Assembly: GCA_964016885.1 (NCBI GenBank)
Contig: OZ024754.1
Coordinates: forward strand, 31,248,001-31,312,000
Length of the DNA stretch: 64,000 bases
Reading direction: 5' to 3'
Origin: Eledone cirrhosa
Taxonomy: Eukaryota
Shown: positions 473 through 63,726 of the stretch, piece after piece
Position numbering within the stretch: the first letter of the stretch is position 1
Layout of the letters: every line of letters starts with the position of its first letter
Position numbers and translations under genes: made by a program
Notes under the pieces: generated by a model
Seen by the model: the letters and a program-made list of their open reading frames with translations, nothing else
Database searches by the model: none
What the model was told of the DNA's origin: nothing

Positions 473-902
473 ATATATATATATATACATACATACGTGT
501 GTGTATGTGTGATAGATATCTATAGTTTCTGAGAAGCAAATTTCACTCACAAGCCATTGTTCAACCTTGAGGCTCTAGAAGATACTTTCTCAAGCTGTCA
601 CACAGTGTGATTGACCTCAAAACTACATATTCTCAGAGTTTTGAATAATCATTGTCATCCCTCCTTACCCACTCTTATTCCATTAAATAAATAAATCAAG
701 ACACTTGTTGGCTGCTGAAACTAATTACTCTAATATTTCAAAGTTACTGTTAAATATTTCTGCGTAAAAAAAATATATGTCATGCTCTACACGTATGTAT
801 TGAGTGCTTTTTCAGTTGATGCTTGAATATTTTTAAGTATGATTATGCATAAAAACATATTTGAATATCTCTCTATATATATAGTATATATATATGGATA
901 TA

Positions 903-9344: not shown

Positions 9345-9690
9345 ATGAGGCAGAAGGAATATTCAATTTGTTGGTAATTCAACAAATATAAATGTTTATA
9401 ACTGATTCAGAGCACTCGACAGATTTTCTGGAGTATAATATTCAATGATATTAAATAAATAGAAACCATATTTATAAAACCATATTTATTCTATTATATA
9501 TATTTCAAGGGTACCAAAACTTTGGTACGCTCTCATCAGATAAAATACAAAGTTTGTTTTATAAATATTGACATAACCAAGAAAAGATACCTTAACAGTT
9601 CAATTTTTCTTAGATAGTCTATCCAAGAAAAACTTGAACCGTTAAGGTATCTTTTAAATATAGTTTCCATTTGTTTAATATCATTGTATA
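9345..9690 (-). mobile_element. Short PLE-like element with a hammerhead (9491-9543) and an internal palindrome (9582-9655)
   Basis: The - strand reads TTAT-CTGATGA-GAG-C-GTACCAAA..TTTGGTAC-C-CTT-GAAA-TATATA-TA-ATAG. Related to 31300-31425, 34757-34885 and 54100-54396. Confidence 0.7.
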
Positions 9691-9702
9691 TATATATGTA
9701 TA

Positions 9703-10121
9703 TATATAAGAACAAAAGATGGTTAAAAGAGTTCCATGTATTTTATTATGCGCATTTCAAAAACAAATATCATCATGCAATAATATTTGTGTTTTCATCA
9801 GATAAAACAGGAAGACATGATATGAAGGTTAAAAAACACTTGTGGATAGTTCAGTTTTAAATCAATATGTTGATTTAAAACTCAACTATCCACAAATGTT
9901 GTTTAACCTTCATATCATGTCTTCCTGTTTTATCTGATGAAAACACAAATATTATTGCATGATGATATGTGTTTTTGAAATGCGCATAATAAAATACATG
10001 GAACTCTTTTAACCATCTTTTGTTCTTATATATTATGTATACTCCAGTCCTACAAACTGTAGAGTGCTTCTTATCCGATATCTGCATTGCTTTATTGTAC
10101 TACAATAAAACTCACCTCCTA
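9703..10121 (+). mobile_element. Fold-back non-autonomous PLE-like element with a hammerhead on each strand
   Basis: ~165 bp inverted arms centred at 9867/9868. HHR at 9928-9994 (+) and 9741-9807 (-): TTTTAT-CTGATGA-stemII-GAAA-TGCGCA-TA-ATAAAA. Confidence 0.8.
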
Positions 10122-11210
10122 CATATATATATATATGTATAATATATATATTGCATTCATTGGCTTAGCTGTGGCTCGAGCTTCAACTATGCTGTATTTC
10201 CATTTGTATATATATATATCTAAACTATAATAAAGGAAAGTCTGCGGGACTGCGTATGGTTTTTTTTTTTTTTATCCCGTTTGCAAAATAAGTTGGATTA
10301 CTTTGAATAAATAATTGTTTCTACTTTAGGCAAATTACCCAGTGCATTACTGGTACTTTATTTTATCGACCCCGTAAGGATGAAAGGCAAAGTCAACCTC
10401 GGCGGGATTTGAACTCAGATCGTAAAGGGATGCAACTCTATGCTGGAAAGCACGGCGTCCGACCCTCTACCGATACTACGGCAGTGGATTAGTAGAATTG
10501 GCAGAGGATCGGGCAACAAGCTTTGCAGCATACAGCTATGTTGCTTTACATTCTCAGTTGAAATCCCACAGACGTTAGCTTTGTCTTTCAGCTTTACGTA
10601 GTCAAAAAATAAAGTACCAGTAATGCATTGGGGTTGATTTATTTGACCTTCCCTTCAAATTGCTAGCCTGGTGCCAAAAGTAGAAATAATTATTATTGTC
10701 ATTATCACTATCACCACCTTTGAATAAATAATGAATGAATATTACATAATTTATCTACTAAATTTCTTAAACAAAAATAATTTCGTAAAATTAAATAATT
10801 TAAAATTAACTTCTTTTCAAAGTTGCACTTCCGGTATATTGTTGCCACCATCACCACTTCAACTACCATATATATTTAGAAAGAGAGAGTGAGTGATGTC
10901 AACACTTCCGGTGGTGATTGCTTAAATGAACATACTAATTTTCTGTCACTAATTTTCTCTTAATGCAGTTTATATTTAATATCATCTTTTTTTAATGAAT
11001 CATGGATTATGTTAGTGATTACATAAGACAGTGTAACAACGTCTTCATTCAATTTCTGTTTATATTGTCAATTACAATTTTATTTGATGTATCATATCTA
11101 CATGTATATATACTTGCGTATAATATCAATATACACACTACACATGCTAGCAGAAAACCACCCAAAAGGTGGTTTTTCTGCTCGTATATATAATATATAT
11201 ATATATATAT

Positions 11211-14067: not shown

Positions 14068-15160
14068 TATATTTCTTTATTAGCCACAGGGGCACAAAAG
14101 AAGGGGACAAATACAAAGGGGGAAGTTTACATACAATAAAAACGTGTAAAATGTTATCACAGATGGAATTTAAAAGTTAGTCGATTTTCCCCAATAGAGG
14201 GAGACAGTTTATATGGGTAACACAGACCCCCGAAAAAAATGTGCAACCCTCATCTCCAGGAGTACGAAGAGCTTGTACTCCTTTCCTCTCCTCCTCCTTT
14301 TCCTCAACCTACAGGCTGATATAGAGAGAAGGCCCATTCACTCGGGCCATTCTCGCCACTTTCACCCACCTTTCATAAAACTTGCTGGGGTACAGCACCT
14401 CTCTCTCCATCCTGATTCTTCTTCCAAAGTGGTATTTGAAAAAAAGAATCAGTTGTTGGCCGGAGAGAAAGGTGTCTGACCTCAGCCCTTTCAACCTTGT
14501 CCACCATACAACCTCTTTCGCCATAGCTATCACACAAAGGAAAACCGCCTCTCCTTCGTTTTTGAAGGAGGGTGGCGGTTTGATCATGACAATGGACTCG
14601 GTGGTCAACTGGATTGGTCCCACCCGCGACAATAGTCGTTCCACATAGCCCCACAGGTCAGTGACGCCCGGGCAGTGTATGAATGCGTGCGCGACGGTTT
14701 CTTCGTCTCGCACGCACCTCGGACAGATCTTTTTTGCAGGGTCCCTGCCCGGGCGCCCATGTCTGTAGAGCTTGTCTCGAACTGGTAGAGCTCCTCGGTA
14801 GCACTGCCAGGCCAGGGACTTTTGGAAGTTGTCCATCGGTCCCGGGCGGAAGGTCCTACCGAACAGACTGGCCAGTTCATCTTCCTCCACGCCTAGAGTT
14901 TCACCGAGCGCGTCGTCGCACTTGCTGCGGACCAACCCTCTATAGAATGACGAAGTGGAGTCTCCACTGATCGCCGGGTCCGCCTGCCAGAGGGCTGTGA
15001 GCGCCTGAGCACATTCGATGTGCCAGTCGCCCATTTTCCTCGGTCTCTGCTTGACCCAGGACTGCAGCTCGGTCAGCGAGACGAGTCGTGGGAAGGCTCG
15101 CCTCACGAACGGGGCCCACACCGGTTGTCCGGTGAGGAATACGTAGAGATGCCGCAGCCT
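14068..15160 (-). mobile_element. 5'-truncated Tx1/L1-like LINE (zf-RVT C-terminus plus 3' UTR)
   Basis: AWQCYRGALPVRDKL...CPRC...EETVAHAFIHCP...LW CCHC motif; GC-rich; bounded by (ATAG)n. Confidence 0.85.
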
Positions 15161-23239: not shown

Positions 23240-25010
23240 CATCATCATCATCATCATCATCATCGTTTAACGTCCGTGTTCCACGCTTGCATGGGTTTGG
23301 ACGGGGGTAGTCCCACTTGAGGCAAGAGTGATTGTCTTGCTCGCATAGGACTGTCTGGCAGGTTTTCTACAGTTGGATGCCCTTCCTAACACCAACCACA
23401 TTTACAGTGTGGGTCTGGGAGGTTTTTACCGTGTTGCCTACACGACCACATTACAGCGTGGACTGTGTGTTTTTTTGTCGTGACACCTACACGATCTCAT
23501 TTGTTTCGGCCTCGATGGCGCGGCACCAACATAACTTTACATAGAACGGGGTGGTGTGGATGGGGTGGGACGGGGTGTATTTTGTTAGAGATGCCTACTG
23601 GCTGGAGTAGGTTTTACTATATATTTAGGTAAGGCGGGTCTTCTCTGTTACTGAGTACCGCCAAAGGTCTCGGTCCAGTGACATTGTCTTGGAGAGGTGT
23701 AAGTGTGTGATGTCGGAGTTTATCAGCTCGTCCCAGGTTTTTCTAGGTCTGCCTATTCCGTGACTACCGTCTATCTTTATTGCCCTGCACTTTGTTATAC
23801 AGCTATCGACTTTCATGCGCATCACGTGTCCATACCAACATAGCCTTCTCTCGAGTAAACAACATCTGATCCCTCTTATCTCTAATTTTTTCCTTAGTTC
23901 GTTTATGCTTTGCCGTTCACGTATATTACTGTTACACATCCAGCGGAGCATGCAAGCTTCGTTCCTCTCTAGTCTGCGTATATCCTCTGCACACAATGCC
24001 CAGGTCTCACTGCCATGCAGCATTGCTGTTCGTATGCAGGCATCGTACAACCTGCCTTTCATTTTTAGGGAGAACCCTCTAGCGGCTAATAGTGGTATAA
24101 GCTCTCTGAACTTTTTCCATCCAGTTCTGACTCTAGCTACAGTACTTTCAGAGCACCCTCCCCCACTGCTGATTTTATCGCCCAGGTAACGGAAGCTGTC
24201 CACTATTTCTATAGAACCCTCTGCGCAATTGAAAGAGCTAGTATTTTGTGGGCACTTGCTGCTACTTATTGCACCAGAACACCGGCCACATGTGAAATCT
24301 ATGTTTTTAGTTAGCTTACCTGTGATCCCACTACATCTTTTATGCACCCATACTTTGCATTTAGGACATAAAATGGAGTTTCTACCTACGCCTTTCCTAC
24401 ACACCGAGCACGACCATTTCCCAGAAGGGATCGCCGCCTTGTTTTCTTTCCTACAAACTAGAACTTTGGTCTTAGCCAGGTTAATTTTAAGTCCTTTTGA
24501 CTCTAGGCCGTGCTTCCATGTTTGGAATTTCTTCTCTAGCTCGGCCATTGATTCCGCTATGAGTGTCAGGTCGTCTGCGTATAGGAGTTCCCATGGGCAG
24601 CCTGTCTTGAACTCCTCTGTTATAGCCTGAAGGGCAATAATAAATAGTAGGGGGCTGAGAACAGAGCCCTGATGGACGCCAACTTTTACGCTAAACTCTT
24701 CACTATATTCGTTGTTAATTCTAACCTTGCTGACTGTTTCTTTATACATGGCTTGTATAGCCCTCACAAGCCATTCGTCAATGCCTAGTTTTCTAAGAGC
24801 CCACCAGATAATGGAGCGGGGGACTCTGTCGAAGGCTTTCTCCAAGTCGACAAAAGCTAAGTAGAGGGGTTTACCTTTAGCTAGGTACTTCTCCTGTAGT
24901 TGTCGTACTATGAAAAGAGCGTCTGTGGTACTTTTGCCTGACACAAACCCGAACTGCATTTCATCTAGGTCAATTCTCTCTCTGATTAGTTGCGCTAATA
25001 TAGTTGCGCT
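23238..25010 (-). mobile_element. 5'-truncated RTE-clade LINE (RT ORF 23625-~25000, 3' UTR, (GAT)n tail)
   Basis: [71 protein letters not shown]. The N-terminal part of the listed ORF is microsatellite. Confidence 0.95.
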
Positions 25011-25069
25011 AATATATATACATATATACATACATACACACATATATATATATACATATATACATACAT

Positions 25070-25100
<31 letters not shown>

Positions 25101-25201
25101 CATATATACACACATACATACATACACACACATATATATATATACATATATACATACATACACACACACATATATATATATATATACATATATACATACA
25201 T

Positions 25202-25232
<31 letters not shown>

Positions 25233-25772
25233 CATATATACATACATACATACACACACATATATATATATATATACATATATACATACATACACACACA
25301 CACACACATATATATATATACATATATACATACATACATACATACACACACATATATATACATATATACATACATACACACACACACATATATATATATA
25401 TACATATATACATACATACACTCACACACACACACATATATATACGTACATGCATACACACACACATGCATATATATATATATATATATATATACACGCA
25501 CACATACATATATATATATATAGATATATATATATATATATGTATATACATATATACGCCCACATACATATATGTACATATATACATACATACATACATA
25601 CATACACTCCTTCCAGTGGGTCCTGTCTGAAGCAACTGTCAATGTATCTATCATCATCATCATCATCTTTGTTTAACGTCCATCTTCCACGTCCATATGT
25701 ATATATATGTATATACATATATATTCATACATATATATATATATATTTATATATATATATATATAAAAATAA

Positions 25773-26431: not shown

Positions 26432-26899
26432 TATATAATAAAGAAGAAATTAAAAGATGGTTAAAAGAGTTCCATATATTTTATTATGCGCATTTCGAAT
26501 ACAAAATCATCCTGGGACAAAAATTGTGTTCTCATCAGATAAAATAAGGTAAGATGATATGAGGCATAATAGCACTTGTTTACAGGAAAGTGGTAAGTCT
26601 ACATATATGATATGTAGACTACATATCATATATGTAGACTTAGCATATCATATATGTAGACTTACCACTTTCCTGTAAGCAAGTGCTATTATGCCTCATA
26701 TCATCTTACCTTATTTTATCTGATGAGAACATAATTGTTGTCCCAGGATGATTTTGTATTCTAAATGCGTATAAAAAAATATATGGAACTCTTTTAACCA
26801 TCTTTTAATTTCTTCTTTATTATATATACTCCAGTTCTACCAACTGTTGAGTGCTACTTATCTGATATATGCATAGTTTTATTTACAATATTACTCACC

Positions 26900-31164: not shown

Positions 31165-31422
31165 TTGAATTAGTATGGTATAGACAAGTACATATGTTGT
31201 TGCGGTGTATAATATTGTCAATACTCTGATATGCCCAGTTGTTTGTTGGGTTGTTATTTCAAAATCTATATATATATATATATATATTAAAATAACAGAT
31301 TAAATATAGTTTCCATTTATTAATATCATTGATATTATACTCCAGAAAACTTGTCGAGTGCTTTGAATGAGTTATAAATATATATATTTATTGAATTACC
31401 AACAAATTAAATATCCCTTTTG

Positions 31423-31459
<37 letters not shown>

Positions 31460-31569
31460 TTATTAAAATATTATTTTAATAAATATTTGCTCTACGGTTC
31501 TTATATATTTGATATATATTTATCCTTATCGAGCCCTCTTTGGATTTTAGTCTTCAAATTTATTATTAT

Positions 31570-44979: not shown

Positions 44980-45433
44980 ATATAAGAACAAAAGATGGTT
45001 GAAAGAGTTCCATGTATTTTATTATGCGCATTTCAAAAACAAATATCATCATGCAATAATATTTGTGTTTTCATCAGATAAAACAGGAGGACATGATATG
45101 AAGGTTAAAAAACACTTGTGGATAGTTCAGTTTTAAATCAACATATGAGAAGTAGTTCTCATGTTAGAAAACTACTTCTCATATGTTGATTTAAAACTGA
45201 ACTATCCACAAGTGTTTTTTAACCTTCATATCATGTCCTCCTGTTTTATCTGATGAAAACACAAATATTATTGCATGATGATATTTGTTTTTGAAATGCG
45301 CATAATAAAATACATGGAACTCTTTTAACCAACTTTTGTTCTTATATATTATGTATACTCCAGTCCTACAAACTGTAGAGTGCTTCTTATCCGATATCTG
45401 CATTGCTTTATTGTACTACAATAAAACTCACCT

Positions 45434-47293: not shown

Positions 47294-50200
47294 TTTTCGT
47301 TCATTGCCAGAGAACGTCTCTATGCACCACCTAAGAGAACATTAGTCTACGACCTCTTTTATACCATAAACGTGGTTCTGTCTTTGCGCGTAATTGTTTT
47401 TCACCGCTCCTATTAATGACGTATTATTCGTTTTTTCCCGTTCTTTGCCAGCGAACGTTACCACGAACCAAAGTATCGTCTTCCTGTCTTCCTCCGGTTG
47501 CAACGTTTTTTGAAATATCCACTTCTGCGTTTACAGATTGACTTTGTTAGTTTCAGCAGATCCCGTTAAGGGTGAAAGCAGCGATTCTTTGCTTAAACTT
47601 TAATCTGTTATTTTAATAAATATTTGCTCTACGGTTCTTATATATTTGATATATATTTTCCTTATCGAGCCCTCTTTGGATTTTAGTCTTCAATTTTATT
47701 ATTATTACTATTCGGCTCCTTCGGTTGAGCACTCTACTGACTTATATTCATCATGCAGAAACAACATCTGAATATTACTACAAAGAACATACCCGTACCA
47801 AGCAGGAAAACATACCTAAAACTCATGATACAGAAAACAGACGCGTTCATTAAAAGGTTGCGTTGGCGTGCCTTTTATTTCGATAATCCGCGAAAAGCAG
47901 ACAACAAACAGGATAAATTTGGATTTAAAACCTATAATAACCCTCCGTGGAACCCAGCATTGCTACCCTTCGAAAATGATGTCTTGGAACTCATTCCGAG
48001 TATCAAATTTCGGAATAGGAGCAATTCCTTCCAGCTAGACCTGAAGAATAGAATTCGTTCTATTAAGGATTCTAACCCCGTGCACGTCCATTCCGACAAA
48101 ACTGGCAACCTATATCAAGTGGAGCGCAGTACTTACCATCAACTACTACATAATGCTGTAACTAAGGATTACCGTAAAACTAATCGGTGTGTCATCAATG
48201 AAATCAACGATGCTGGGTTTAAAATCACATCTGATCTCAACATCCTGGACCGGACCGAACCTCTGGACCCTATCTCTCCCCACTTTACCCTGAAGGATCA
48301 CAAATCCAATTTTCCGAATAACCCCTCTATTCGGCTTATTAACCCAACGAAGTCCGATTTAGGTAGACTTAGTAAAACGATTCTTGATAGAATTATACCT
48401 GAAATTAGAAGTTTGGCTCCTCTCGCACTGTGGAACAATTCTTTCGCGGTGATTGATTGGTTCAACGGCATATGTAACAAGGAACATTGCCGTTTTATCC
48501 AATTCGACATCAACAATTACTACTCCCCCATCACTTTACCACTTCTCCTTAGAGCTATCAATTTCGCTAAAACACTCACAGTGGTTAAGGATTTCGAAGT
48601 CGATGTCATCCTCAATGCCCAAAAGTCGGTGATTAATTTCGACGACTCTATTTGGATTAAAAAATCCAATAGTACCCCATTCGACGTGAGTATGGGAGCC
48701 AGTGACTCTGCGGAGGTTACTGATCTTATTGGCCTTTTCCTTCTTTTCTCTATCAAGGACGAATTCCCCAACGCGGGCGGTGGTTTGTACCGTGACGATG
48801 GTCTTTTGACCATGACTAAGTGCGGACCTCGTGCTTGCGACAGGTTCAGAAAAGAACTCACAGCGTTCTTTAAAGGCTTCAACCTCTCTATACAGGTTGA
48901 GGCCAATCTCTCGGTCGTTAATTACCTCGACGTTACCCTCAATTTATTGAATGGGTTGTATTACCCGTATAGAAAGCCGAATGATACGCTTAATTACATA
49001 AGTAAGCATTCCAACCATCCTGCCAGCATAACCAAGAACCTGGTAAAAAACGTTTCGTTGAGGCTTTCCCGTCTTTCCACCAACGAGCGCATGTTCAAAG
49101 ACCATTCCACTTATTCCAATGAAGCTCTTGCTCGAAGTGGATTTGTCGATAAGGTAGCATATACAGAGTACGAAAATAGACCTAGAAGAAATAGATCCCG
49201 TCGCATTTGTTGGTTTAACCCACCATATAATATGGAGGTGGCCACACCATTAGCTAAGATCTTTCTTTCCCTTATTACGAAGCATTTTCCCCCTACACAT
49301 AAATATAGTAACATTTTTAATAGAAATACTATTAAAATGTCTTACTCTACGACTCCTAACCTTGCACATAACATCACAGCTTCAAATTTAGCTAAACTAC
49401 CTAGCCGTAGGAACACGTGCAACCCTGTAGTTAGTACTAACTGTAATTGTAGGAATCGGGCTGATTGCCCCCTATCCGGGAAATGCCTCTCTAGTAACAT
49501 TGTCTACAAATGTAAGGTTGTAACACCCACGTCTCGTAGGGCCTACATAGGGTTAACCGCCAATAGTTTCAAGCAGCGTCTTTACATGCATACCCATTCT
49601 TTTCGTTACCCTCTAAGAAGGAATATGACGTCACTTTCAGCTTATATCTGGAGTCTAAAAGACAACCACACCCAATATAAGTTACACTGGGAGATCCTAG
49701 CTAGGGCTAGATCGTATAACGGAAATAAAAGACCATGTGACCGCTGTGCCGCTGAGGCCCTGGAAATACTCTACGCCACAGACCACATCTTAAACAAAAA
49801 ATCTGAGGCAATTTCGGCTTGTAAACATAAATTGCACAAAACTTTCCTGTATTACAGCCCCACGTTATACCCTAATGGATAGCACGATCTATACGTGGAT
49901 ATTTTACGTCTTGATGTGGGAGCTAAGTATATGTTTTGTTTATTCCTTTACTTATTTGCATAGGTAAGTATATATTACCCGTATGTTTTGTGAAGGTATG
50001 TATACCTTCTCGTACGTATATTTGACTGTTATGGCGTATAATTTTTACATATTCTGGTATTTAGGGTTTGGCTATGTGTATACGGGAGTTTTGCGTCTGC
50101 GTGAGTATGCAGGTTCGTACGTATGGTGGGTGTGTGTATATGTGTACTTCTTGTTTATGTTGACTTACGTCTCCGAACATTCGTGTATTTATTTGTAGGT

Positions 50201-50858
50201 ATGTGTGTGCGCTTGTTATATACGTATTTATTTACTTATATACGTTTATATAATTATTTATTTATTTGTACACAAGCATACACACACACACATATTTATA
50301 TGTGCGTGGTTTTGTATACCTATGGTAAGGTTTTGCGTATACTTGAGTATGTACGTATCTGTTTGCGTGTATGTATTTATTTGTTTCTATTACTTCTGTA
50401 TTGTATTTATTTACTTTGTTCTTAACTCTGTAGCGGAGATTCATTTGGTCTCCTAGTTAGAATTTTAGTCTACAACTTCGGCTATACCATTTACGTGGTT
50501 TTGTCTTTGCGTGCTATTGTTCTCCACTATCTTCGTTTTTTCGTTCATTGCCAGAGAACGTCTCTATGCACCATCTAAGAGAACATTAGTCTACGACCTC
50601 TTTTATACCATAAACGTGGTTCTGTCTTTGCGCGTAATTGTTTTTCACCGCTCCTATTAATGACGTATTATTCGTTTTTTCCCGTTCTTTGCCAGCGAAC
50701 GTTACCACGAACCAAAGTATCGTCTTCCTGTCTTCCTCCGGTTGCAACGTTTTTTGAAATATCCACTTCTGCGTTTACAGATTGACTTTGTTAGTTTCAG
50801 AAGATCCCGTTAAGAGGAAAGCAGCGATTCTTTGCTTAAACTTTAATCTGTCATTTTA

Positions 50859-50866
<8 letters not shown>
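47294..50866 (+). mobile_element. Full-length Penelope-like retroelement with direct pseudo-LTRs
   Basis: The ORF is flanked by near-identical ~330 bp direct repeats (47294-47623 and 50538-50866). The 3' copy runs into (TA)n. Confidence 0.9.
47753..49882 (+). CDS. Penelope-like element polyprotein: reverse transcriptase plus C-terminal GIY-YIG endonuclease (Naiad-like)
   Basis: Uninterrupted 709-aa ORF. RT motifs FIQFDINNYY, VSMGASDSAE, LYRDDGL and VNYLDV; PLE thumb YRKP...SNHP; linker CNCRNRADCPLSGKC; GIY-YIG NIVYKC...AYIGLT...FKQRLYMH; C-terminal CDRC...E...LNKKSE...CKH. Confidence 0.95.
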   Translation: MQKQHLNITTKNIPVPSRKTYLKLMIQKTDAFIKRLRWRAFYFDNPRKADNKQDKFGFKTYNNPPWNPALLPFENDVLELIPSIKFRNRSNSFQLDLKNRIRSIKDSNPVHVHSDKTGNLYQVERSTYHQLLHNAVTKDYRKTNRCVINEINDAGFKITSDLNILDRTEPLDPISPHFTLKDHKSNFPNNPSIRLINPTKSDLGRLSKTILDRIIPEIRSLAPLALWNNSFAVIDWFNGICNKEHCRFIQFDINNYYSPITLPLLLRAINFAKTLTVVKDFEVDVILNAQKSVINFDDSIWIKKSNSTPFDVSMGASDSAEVTDLIGLFLLFSIKDEFPNAGGGLYRDDGLLTMTKCGPRACDRFRKELTAFFKGFNLSIQVEANLSVVNYLDVTLNLLNGLYYPYRKPNDTLNYISKHSNHPASITKNLVKNVSLRLSRLSTNERMFKDHSTYSNEALARSGFVDKVAYTEYENRPRRNRSRRICWFNPPYNMEVATPLAKIFLSLITKHFPPTHKYSNIFNRNTIKMSYSTTPNLAHNITASNLAKLPSRRNTCNPVVSTNCNCRNRADCPLSGKCLSSNIVYKCKVVTPTSRRAYIGLTANSFKQRLYMHTHSFRYPLRRNMTSLSAYIWSLKDNHTQYKLHWEILARARSYNGNKRPCDRCAAEALEILYATDHILNKKSEAISACKHKLHKTFLYYSPTLYPNG

Positions 50867-51191: not shown

Positions 51192-51981
51192 TCATCATCA
51201 TCATCGTTTAACGTCTATCTTCCACGCTAGCGTGGGTTTAGACGGGAATTGTCCCACTTGAGGCAATATTGGTCAGGTGACCGTGTCTCGCTCGTATAGG
51301 ACTGTCTGGCAGGTTTTCTACGGCTGGATGCCCTTCCTAACACCAACCACGTTTACAGTGTGGACTGGGAGGTTTTTACTGTGTTACCTACACGGCCACA
51401 TTACAGCGTGGACTGTATGTTTTTTTTGTTGTGACACCTACACGACCTCATTTATTTAGGACTGGATATTGTGGTACCAACATAGCTTTACAGAGAAAGA
51501 GGTGGTGTTGATGGGGTGGGGGTGGGCAAGTTGGGTAGTGGGATGGGGGTGTATATTTGATTAAGAGGTGCCTACTGAGTGTAGGTTTCGCTTTGTACTT
51601 AGGCAAGGCGGGTCTTCTGTATTACTGTGTAGCGCCAAAGATCTCGGTCCAGTGACATTCTCTTAGAGAGGTGTAGGTGTGTAAGGTCGGAATTTATCAG
51701 ATCGTCCCAGGCTTTTCTGGGTCTACCTATTTCGTAGCTACCATCAATTTTGATCGCCCTGCACTTTTTTATATAGCTGTCGTCTTTCATGCGCATCATG
51801 TGACCATACCAACGTAGTCTTCTCTCAAGTAAACAGCATCTGACCCCTCTTATATCTAATTTCTCCCTTAGTTCATTTATGCTTTTCTGTTCACGTGTAT
51901 TACTATTACACACCCAAGGGAGCATGCATGCTTCGTTCCTCTCCAGTCTGCGCAGATCCTCTGCACACAATGCCCATGTCA
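51192..51981 (-). mobile_element. 3' fragment of the same RTE family
   Basis: Protein aligns to the C-terminus of the 23625 ORF; same 3' UTR and tail. Confidence 0.9.
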
Positions 51982-52822
51982 TATATATATATATATATAT
52001 GTATATCAGGATAGAACCAGTTTAAAACTAGTTAGACCATTACTCAACAGAGTACTCAATACTTGGGGTAGTAGAGTATGGCTACATTGTAAAGATTCGA
52101 GACCCAATGGCTGAGCTCTTGCTTTTTCAACAACTAGCTCCAGAACTAGCTGTTGAAATGGTATGAACTCAGCCATCAGGTACCGACTCTTTATAATATA
52201 TCTATGTATATATATATGTGTGCGTGTGCATGTGTATATGTATATATATCTACATTTATATATATGTGTGTGTGTGTATACATATATTGCTGGTTTTGGT
52301 AACATTCTTTTGGAACTAATCAGTTAATTTGATTCTATATCAGATTGAAAATAAGTATAGTTTCTACAAGAGGAAACCAAAATATGTGAAGAAGAAACAG
52401 ATTTTGAATCTAATGTATCGACTATGTGAGAAAAACGAAGATAGTGCCACTATCTGTATCTACAACAACCCTTTCCCTGATCTGTGCGACAGATATGGTA
52501 CAGGAGAATCAGCAGTTGCCAGATTTATACCAAGTTTCAGCTCAAATAGACCGGTTAGTAGAGCCACACTTTGTAACATTTGTCTAATTCATTTTCAATC
52601 TTTTGTTGCTAACACATGCATTTATAATAATAATAATAATAATGAAATTATTGTGTACAGTGCTCAGGTGCACTACAACTCATCAAAGGTGCATGTATAG
52701 TACATAGAATAATGTACAAATGTCAGGAAATGTACATTATTCTATGTACTATACATGCACCTTTGATGAGTTGTAGTGCACCTGAGCACTGTACACAATA
52801 ATTTCATTATTATATATATATA

Positions 52823-53021
52823 GAAGTGGTTACACAACAGTTAGTTCACCACACCAAGAACAACCGCCTCACATTAGCAGATCCTCAGCTGAGATTCCAC
52901 TAAGGTGAGGCAGTTGTTCTCGGTGTGGTGAACTAACTGTTGTGTAACCACTTCAACCTAACTCGTCCCATGGACTGAGTGCTCTACCACTACGGATATT
53001 ACCTTCCAGTGTTCTACCACT
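52823..53021 (+). mobile_element. Short fold-back element (IR 52823-52954) with the conserved 3' hairpin
   Basis: Palindrome centred on CTCAGCTGAG; tail ACTC-GTCC-cat-GGAC-T-GAGTGCT; flanked by (TA)n. Confidence 0.65.
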
Positions 53022-53878: not shown

Positions 53879-54060
53879 GTAATAATAAATGTGAAGACTA
53901 AAATCCAAACAGGGCTCAATAAGGATTATATATATATAATATGCATATAAATCCGTAGAGCAAATATTTATTATAAGAACAGATTAAAGTTTAAGCTAAG
54001 AATCACTGCTTTCAGGGTGAAAGCAGTGATTCTTAGCTTAATCTTTACTTTGTTCTTATA

Positions 54061-54100: not shown

Positions 54101-54392
54101 TACAAATATTGATATACCCTTAAAGAATGCGACCATGTCAGTTGGAAGCTCTCTTTAAGGGTATGTCAATATTTGTTTATAAAACTGATCTATATTATAT
54201 TTTATCTGATGAAAGCGCACCATAATTTTGCTTTGGTGTCCTTGAAATATGTATAGTGAAATAAATATGGTTTTATAAATATAGTTTCCATTTGTTAATA
54301 TATTGTATTTTTACTCCAAAAATTTGTTGAGTGCTTTATATCAGTTATAAAAATATTTGCTTGTTGTATCCCAACAAATTAAATATAACTTC

Positions 54393-57130: not shown

Positions 57131-57329
57131 GTTATTCCGGGTTGAATCGGAGGTAACCACAGTAAGTAAGGTACTCAATACATTGCAGAGTATAACATTT
57201 TTAATATAGATGAGATTCTACAGGACTAGAACTGTTTCATTCTTTAGAAATCATCAGGAATCTGAGATTCCTGATGATTTCTAAAGAATGAAACAGTTCT
57301 AGTCCTGTAGAATCTCATCTATATTAAAA

Positions 57330-63402: not shown

Positions 63403-63726
63403 AGAGGTTCTCAAAGTGGGCATTGATAAGGTCCAGGGGGCGCCGAGACCTAAGGGGTATAGAGATGAGATACTAGTACATTAAATATCAAATGATATAT
63501 ATAGTAAAATAAAAAAATATATAATATTTATTTATACATAGTATATATTATATTATATACTAGCAGAATGGCCTGGCGTTGCTAAGGATTTGCTCTAGGG
63601 TTCTTATATATTTGATATATATTTATCCTTATCGAGCCTCGTGAAATAAATACATTTGTTTATATTTTGTTATTGTGTATGCAAAAATATCTGTAAACGA
63701 ATATATAATTAAATATATATATATGT

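Follow-up and report, generated by a model that had tools for sequence, protein, structure and literature searches.

Paired bulged hairpins adjoin the insertion ends of Hydra-clade Penelope-like elements

A 64,000-nt stretch of Eledone cirrhosa DNA (assembly GCA_964016885.1, contig OZ024754.1, positions 31,248,001 to 31,312,000 of the forward strand; hereafter the window) carries a Penelope-like element (PLE) and a set of small bulged hairpins, found both before the start codon of that element and in short copies around it. What are these hairpins for? PLEs are the closest transposon relatives of telomerase, and the sole in vitro study of how they recognise their own RNA and choose where to start copying it locates two starts and, to our knowledge, names no conserved signal. 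An earlier sequence-only reading of the window had proposed that the hairpins are a conserved, covarying cis-signal for reverse transcriptase (RT) binding, priming or translation start across divergent PLE families. We find that the hairpin is a real, clade-wide cis-element of PLEs of the Hydra clade, apparently undescribed. The distance to the element end is tight and that to the ATG loose; it is the end just 5' of each hairpin that matters.

By its sequence features, we assign the 709-aa ORF to a Hydra-clade PLE. It is a single ORF whose endonuclease is C-terminal, with none at the N terminus. The protein carries YRDD at 346, IVY..YIG at 583-600 and DKT at 115, in place of DKG, as well as RWR at 37, where 58 of 81 aligned rows have K at that place; all the cysteines and the histidine of the CxCX5C linker, CxxC and CxH motifs are kept in 80-81 of the 81 aligned proteins. 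The features given for the Hydra clade in the part of PMC8557442 covered here are RW(K/R), DKT, CxCX5C, CxxC and CxH, and the window element resembles the elements described there in its protein motifs, (TA)n targeting, 5' truncation, inverted arms and one-sided tail; their pseudo-LTR hammerhead has a degenerate, hammerhead-like counterpart here. A Naiad PLE is ruled out, the endonuclease being C-terminal rather than N-terminal and the motif DKT rather than DKA. Pfam gave no match on the 709-aa protein itself and a GIY-YIG match on its homologue P0105. The predicted fold has a pLDDT of 92, with TERT as its top fold match (E 1.5e-8). The genome (3.0 Gb) holds at least 63 near-identical full-length copies of this ORF, and we refer to the window's own family as family A. 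A search of viral contigs found no relative.

The hammerhead-like core upstream of the ORF was recognised by eye. In this young, abundant family stem I is unpaired by eye and the catalytic core is deviant, and the ribozyme may be dispensable in family A. Rfam returned only chance-level matches in 47480-47800 and in 10 metagenome loci, and only microsatellite look-alikes among the 150 of 278 matches listed for the whole window. Fragments of non-LTR retrotransposons also lie in the window, at 23625-25343, 51599-51982 and 14309-15034, all on the minus strand; among them they carry an RT together with a PHD finger, plus a zf-RVT domain.

Features of the window. Positions are those of the 64,000-nt stretch.
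Feature	Position	Strand	Remarks
PLE ORF, 709 aa, RT and C-terminal GIY-YIG endonuclease	47753..49882	+	Hydra clade
Degenerate hammerhead-like core	47554..47582, approximate	+	by eye; departs from CUGANGA
HP1, the first hairpin; inner stem long, anchor a GAGCCC variant	47626..47672	+	local folding as predicted
Tail, bounded by end sites 1 and 2 (last bases 47623 and 47711, respectively)	47624..47711	+	
HP2, second bulged hairpin	47715..47732	+	ends 20 nt 5' of ATG; one clear inner pair
Downstream pseudo-LTR copy	50544..50866	+	ends at site 1 (50866), then (TA)n; neither hairpin
HP1 of family D	10041..10067	+	truncated palindromic 3' end
HP1 of family D	45357..45383	+	truncated palindromic 3' end
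HP1 of D-like family	26828..26854	+	own parent untraced
HP1 of family E	54313..54334	+	
HP1 of E-like family	31339..31361	+	own parent untraced
HP1 of E-like family	9412..9434	-	own parent untraced
HP1 of family F	57171..57191	-	parent with degenerate HP2
HP1 of diverged G-like copy	52052..52077	-	family G traced via flanking-DNA copies
HP1 of family H	52961..52982	+	1-nt bulge
Hairpin of untraced family	784..807	+	(TA)n 66 nt later
Long-stem HP1, short family-A copy	31489..31535, approximate	+	ends at site 2 (31575)
Long-stem HP1, related subfamily, other inner stem	53912..53961, approximate	-	ends at site 2

The motif reads RCTC-stem-YN-GAGYRC, a bulged hairpin of 18-30 nt. In its strict form (2-nt bulge, at least 3 inner pairs) it occurs 9 times in the window, against a mean of 0.07 and a maximum of 1 in 30 dinucleotide shuffles, and 26 times in the surrounding 264 kb, against 0.125 in 8 shuffles. 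When the bulge length was set to 0, 1, 2, 3 or 4 nt, the matches numbered 3, 1, 28, 0 and 0. The shuffles and this register control rule out chance or a microsatellite artefact as the source of the motif. Across 864 kb of the same genome, (TA)4 lies 25-75 nt 3' of 66 of the 77 matches with at least 2 inner pairs; at that distance the background is 6.8%, and unpaired motif matches in the same 864 kb reach 9/113.

All 11 hairpins listed by the sequence-only reading are present, within 1-3 nt of where it placed them. For 5 of the 11, a regular expression finds a hammerhead core 43-68 nt further upstream. Its description of one and the same bulged hairpin with a different inner stem each time needs qualifying: the 2-nt bulge is general, with a 1-nt bulge at 52961, and the inner pairing does switch, with only one clear inner pair at 47715. 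That hairpin had been put 22 nt before the ATG and in fact ends 20 nt before it. The rule that (TA)n follows holds for 8 of 10 short copies, with (TA)4 at 38-66 nt; it fails at 47715, which has no (TA)n, and at 9434, with no (TA)4 within 300 nt, and at 31339 an internal TA run lies at 16 nt. The inventory was also incomplete: it lacked the long-stem HP1 (47626-47672) as well as the related hairpins near 31489 (+) and 53960 (-). What had been treated as a single positional class is two, HP1 in the short copies and HP2 at 47715.

How far does this arrangement extend? A metagenome scan gave 77 loci, of which 59 with an N-terminus form 47 families at <80% nucleotide identity. HP2 is found in 40 of the 47, HP1 in 30, both in 26 and either in 44, compared with 3 of 422 ORF windows and 4 of 47 antisense leaders. 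The leader runs in the order hammerhead, 42-67 nt, HP1, spacer, HP2, ATG, with 55-83 nt between HP1 and HP2 and the HP2 anchor 13-41 nt 5' of the ATG. A hammerhead core stands 5' of HP1 in 20 of the 30 families, and 8 of the other 10 have <60 nt of leader; HP1 is absent from several families due to a short-cut leader alone. One of the three families with neither hairpin has just 42 nt of leader. Beyond the anchor the consensus continues as T-N-T. In both the metagenome and own-genome hairpins, the anchor and its next bases (GAG-YR-CTC) are near-palindromic, a sequence feature that could reflect RNA-RNA pairing or symmetric recognition. Inserts in the inner part of HP2 are tolerated with the stem base kept, of ~60 nt in families B and C and ~100 nt in family H.

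Published sequences agree with this picture. The file of PMC8557442 gives six Hydra consensus sequences, from coral, sea cucumber, copepod and octopus hosts. Read by eye, three show the exact motif, which Hydra-1_Ajap carries twice; two have variants, and in one no motif is evident. Six 9-letter anchor words gave 4 matches in this file, all within hairpins, and 4 in the much larger Naiad/Chlamys files, with a paired stem in none; together with the C-terminal endonuclease and DKT this points to the Hydra clade and not to Naiad. At 30 own-genome GIY-YIG loci of other clades there were 2 matches within 1.5 kb, one weak and one from an adjoining Hydra insertion. These loci (L345-L374), from abundant PLE families, appear by their zinc-finger motifs to be mostly Neptune-like. 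Two Neptune-like elements also end in (TA)n and lack the hairpin on the upstream side of that end, where the sequence covered stops. Full-text searches of the PLE literature, including the portions covered of PMC8557442, PMC11167929, bioRxiv 10.64898/2026.07.22.740005, PMC4209133, PMC3846280, PMC6765202 and PMC7229834, turned up no description of the motif. The word 'hairpin' is absent from the main text of PMC8557442, though its consensus file contains these hairpins.

For the analysis of covariation, hairpins were picked by their two fixed arms, inner pairing not being required, and alignment-free pair counts and a tree were used; inner lengths of 8 to >100 nt align poorly. Of 70 hairpins, 68 have the first inner pair (48 C-G, 19 U-A), where shuffles give 54.7; for the third inner pair, counted in HP1, the figures are 19 of 21 and 9.3. 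With bulge registers of 1 or 3 nt there was no pairing excess, the signal being confined to the 2-nt register. As shuffles ignore kinship, the 30 families with HP1 were also placed on an RT tree, which comprises relatives only. It requires at least 6 switches between C-G and U-A at the first inner pair, with one unpaired row, and 4 of these are forced by well-supported branches. The outer stem changes as well: its first pair is G-C in 69 of the 70 hairpins from metagenomes, whereas 39 of the 50 distinct cores from this genome have A-U there. The pair counts, the switches on the tree and the presence in 44 of 47 families uphold the earlier claim of a conserved, covarying cis-signal across divergent PLE families.

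Folding is less telling. The mean predicted outer-stem probability is 0.69 for sense RNA, 0.65 for antisense RNA and 0.61 for antisense DNA, with sense higher in 37 of 70, and such predictions do not tell the strand, nor RNA from DNA. G-U pairs outnumber A-C pairs 7 to 3 (3 to 1 in the outer pair). The outer-stem probability exceeds 0.5 in 48 of 70 hairpins, and the HP2 of family D takes another fold at minimum energy. This weak predicted folding limits the structural claim, and the thermodynamic weakness suggests stabilisation by a protein.

The ends of the elements point to the role. (TA)n directly follows 108 of 143 distinct family-A ends, most of the others being TA-rich, and 106 of these 108 lie just 5' of a hairpin: 62 within 12 nt of HP1, 54 of them at -3, and 44 within 12 nt of HP2, 41 of them at -4. 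Among the 35 ends not directly before (TA)n, 22 are near the two sites and 13 away from both. Because the family-A loci were picked with the protein or with a query whose last base is 47622, ends further upstream are under-sampled. All 6 family-C ends and 6 of 10 in family B fall at hairpin sites, the remaining 4 lying 14-16 nt upstream; the offset from the hairpin differs by family, from about -2 to -10. Of 73 hairpins tested in the 864 kb, 28 are accompanied by an inverted arm, which in 27 cases turns to (TA)n at -11..+1. Where the rows can be interpreted, copies inside metagenome contigs break off 0-6 nt short of HP1 or HP2; rows seeded from L084 and L127 (TA-rich) and the indel rows at -13/-14 were set aside as artefacts. 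TA occurs within -10..-3 of 30/30 HP1 and 36/40 HP2, compared with 35/55 and 37/76 control windows.

The two kinds of end, moreover, occur together. In an unselected sample of head-to-head arm pairs from six families, 14 joined site 1 to site 2, 1 joined site 1 to site 1, none joined site 2 to site 2 and 2 were unclassified; mixed pairs thus make up 14 of 15 classifiable cases (p=0.0005 vs even odds), with 63 arms unpaired in the same sample. Selected family-A loci gave 7 mixed terminal pairs and no matched one. These mixed pairs are the known one-sided tail of PLEs, now with defined borders. Tailed copies number ~70-80 per Mb in the sample, which extrapolates to roughly 2 x 10^5 per genome. 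Hydra ends are often nested in one another's TA runs, and at window 9411-10130 a family-D palindrome lies beside or inside an E-like element, the (TA)n target being common to both. A variant at window 63588-63700, also seen at L071, L233, L269 and L271, has the HP1 of family A followed by a different tail sequence and is possibly a recombinant or a sister family.

If short copies stop just before HP2, their parents should run on into HP2, and this forecast was tested. Pattern searches, with some chance and double matches included, found tails continuing at 272 (family D), 75 (E) and 657 (G) places, and in these families the tail leads to a canonical HP2 and then to a Hydra ORF. In family F (122 places) a bare 4-bp stem without GAGYRC leads to the ORF, the sharp site-2 end being retained. 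For family H, a search of HP2 with RCTC gave 5 chance matches only, and a looser pattern found the variant: in 2 of 12 loci inspected, an HP2 with a ~100-nt insert and a changed 5' arm leads to the ORF, whose ATG lies ~170 nt past the short-copy end. The forecast held in full in 3 of 5 families and in part in the other 2.

The ORFs of families D to H are 39-54% identical to the window protein, and in each of the five short-copy types traced, the copy is the truncated 3' end of another autonomous Hydra family and stops before HP2. That they are non-autonomous satellites of the window's element is ruled out, since they belong to other ORF-bearing families, and a non-autonomous retrozyme is likewise rejected for families D-H, which run into Hydra ORFs; the tracing covered these five types. 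It had been speculated that short copies end just inside the ORF, the tail at 52992 (TDITFQCSTT) loosely resembling the ORF start. Neither part survives: the parents continue through HP2 before the ORF, and the 52961 family runs through its variant HP2, with the ATG ~170 nt later. The family-H tail word occurs 96 times forward and 617 times in reverse in the genome, clustered on C3 and pointing to a tandem array, and family G forms head-to-tail arrays with a period of ~3.5 kb at C1:91476605-91487273 and 437200337-437207434, an arrangement that would supply RNA with both hairpins.

We propose that on the element RNA the hairpin probably serves as the binding site of the RT-endonuclease and sets where reverse transcription begins; of the roles put forward earlier, RT binding or priming is the one that the end positions and mixed end pairs make most likely. 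First, a read-through transcript of tandem units would carry the hairpin, which the protein would grip. The nicked (TA)n target would then anneal to UA 3-10 nt 5' of the hairpin, and cDNA synthesis would proceed 5'-ward, leaving the governing hairpin itself uncopied, so that hairpins would be inherited solely when transcription runs on into the unit that follows. Each of the two hairpins would have its own protein, the two possibly forming a dimer, and both nicked strands would be primed. The strand started at HP2 would copy HP1 and the spacer, and thereby acquire the tail, whereas that started at HP1 would have none; two starts on opposite target strands would give inverted arms with a one-sided tail. 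More tentatively, and at somewhat less than an even chance, the RNA may have two handles: the pair of same-type hairpins would load two RT-endonucleases onto a single transcript, both strands cut at (TA)n would be primed simultaneously, each at a fixed distance 5' of its hairpin, and the hairpin would act from outside the copied sequence as a portable, telomerase-like signal of register, sufficient for inserting any upstream RNA.

Other explanations must account for the same ends. It is unlikely that the RNA is instead cut just 5' of the hairpin, by a host or element nuclease or through termination, with its two 3' ends copied by end-primed target-primed reverse transcription. Such cutting predicts identical genomic ends and likewise excludes the governing hairpin, but the 14/15 mixed pairing would need two RNA ends for each event, where one RNA with two sites is simpler, and the start in Poseidon_Ac (PAc) was unmoved by added 3' sequence, the RT having begun internally (PMC11167929, as far as covered). 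We judge it about equally improbable that the hairpin acts in single-stranded DNA, in a cDNA or transposition intermediate, where it would guide a GIY-YIG cut at a nearby TA and the ends would be the cuts. Antisense DNA folds equally well, the conserved TA corresponds to what the enzyme targets, the tail has been ascribed to endonuclease-mediated resolution (PMC8557442, in part) and recognition by the D. virilis endonuclease required the tail, as cited in the portion of PMC11167929 covered. Against DNA cutting, the small surplus of G-U over A-C pairs speaks for the sense strand, there is no end peak 3' of HP2 and no precursor-like copy starting there, and PAc tail ends agree with RT starts measured in vitro (PMC11167929, same portion).

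Less probable than either is that the hairpins serve translation initiation, RNA stability or regulation of the hammerhead, the nearby ends merely reflecting an AT-rich upstream stretch. HP2 does end 13-41 nt before the ATG, and HP1 does lie 42-67 nt past a hammerhead core in 20 of 30 families. However, the end peaks occupy single positions (-3, -4) despite TA-rich sequence throughout the leader, two hairpins correspond to two ends, inner inserts of 60-100 nt are tolerated, and family A retains both hairpins with its hammerhead degenerate. Translation start as the main role, which the sequence-only reading had entertained, is also at odds with the spacing, since the distance from HP2 to the ATG is loose (13-41 nt, and ~170 nt in family H) and that to the end is tight.

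A hairpin that positions the start of reverse transcription would have counterparts elsewhere. The 3' stem-loops that recruit stringent LINE proteins, as in eel UnaL2/UnaSINE1, and the R2 3' UTR are structured RNA signals near the priming site, and LINE 3' stem-loops are common to families using the same kind of protein. Those signals sit on the 5' side of the priming site, and every insertion receives a copy of them, whereas the Hydra hairpins sit on the 3' side, are uncopied from their own start and are paired. In telomerase, RNA elements bound by TERT fix the template register. The likeness here is one of a related enzyme, an internal template and a short primer-template alignment; unlike telomerase, there is no repeat addition, and the comparison is an analogy only, of which RNA homology is not part.

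A precedent is PAc, from the sister clade. In vitro, its RT starts at two internal RNA sites that bound the tail, both target strands are cut and extended, and the target is AT-rich (PMC11167929, in the portion covered). The window family likewise has two ends bounding a one-sided tail. However, PAc starts within the ORF, in a stem loop that is AC-rich and lies 111-118 nt from the ORF's beginning, whereas the Hydra sites lie 5' of the ATG; the PAc start site is not homologous to the target, whereas Hydra ends fall at a conserved TA, microhomologous with it; and for PAc that portion reports no cross-species motif, whereas each Hydra site has its own sequence-conserved hairpin 3' of it. The tail itself, given as 30-40 bp from endonuclease resolution in the part of PMC8557442 covered, is here ~55-90 nt and bounded by two conserved hairpins. 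Non-LTR retrozymes, in the covered parts of PMC7229834 and bioRxiv 10.64898/2026.07.22.740005, likewise have short hammerhead repeats derived from PLE pseudo-LTRs; in contrast, each of the five types of short copy traced here is the truncated end of a family that has an ORF, and no independent non-autonomous unit.

The borders described here yield a precise rule by which the ends of this abundant class of repeats can be annotated. Covariation reaches across animal phyla, the geometry is fixed and intact ORFs are many, which makes the question directly testable. If the RNA does have two handles, the one-sided tail of PLE insertions and their inverted arms would be accounted for; the motif also points to a compact RT of 80 kDa whose small RNA handle is not copied.
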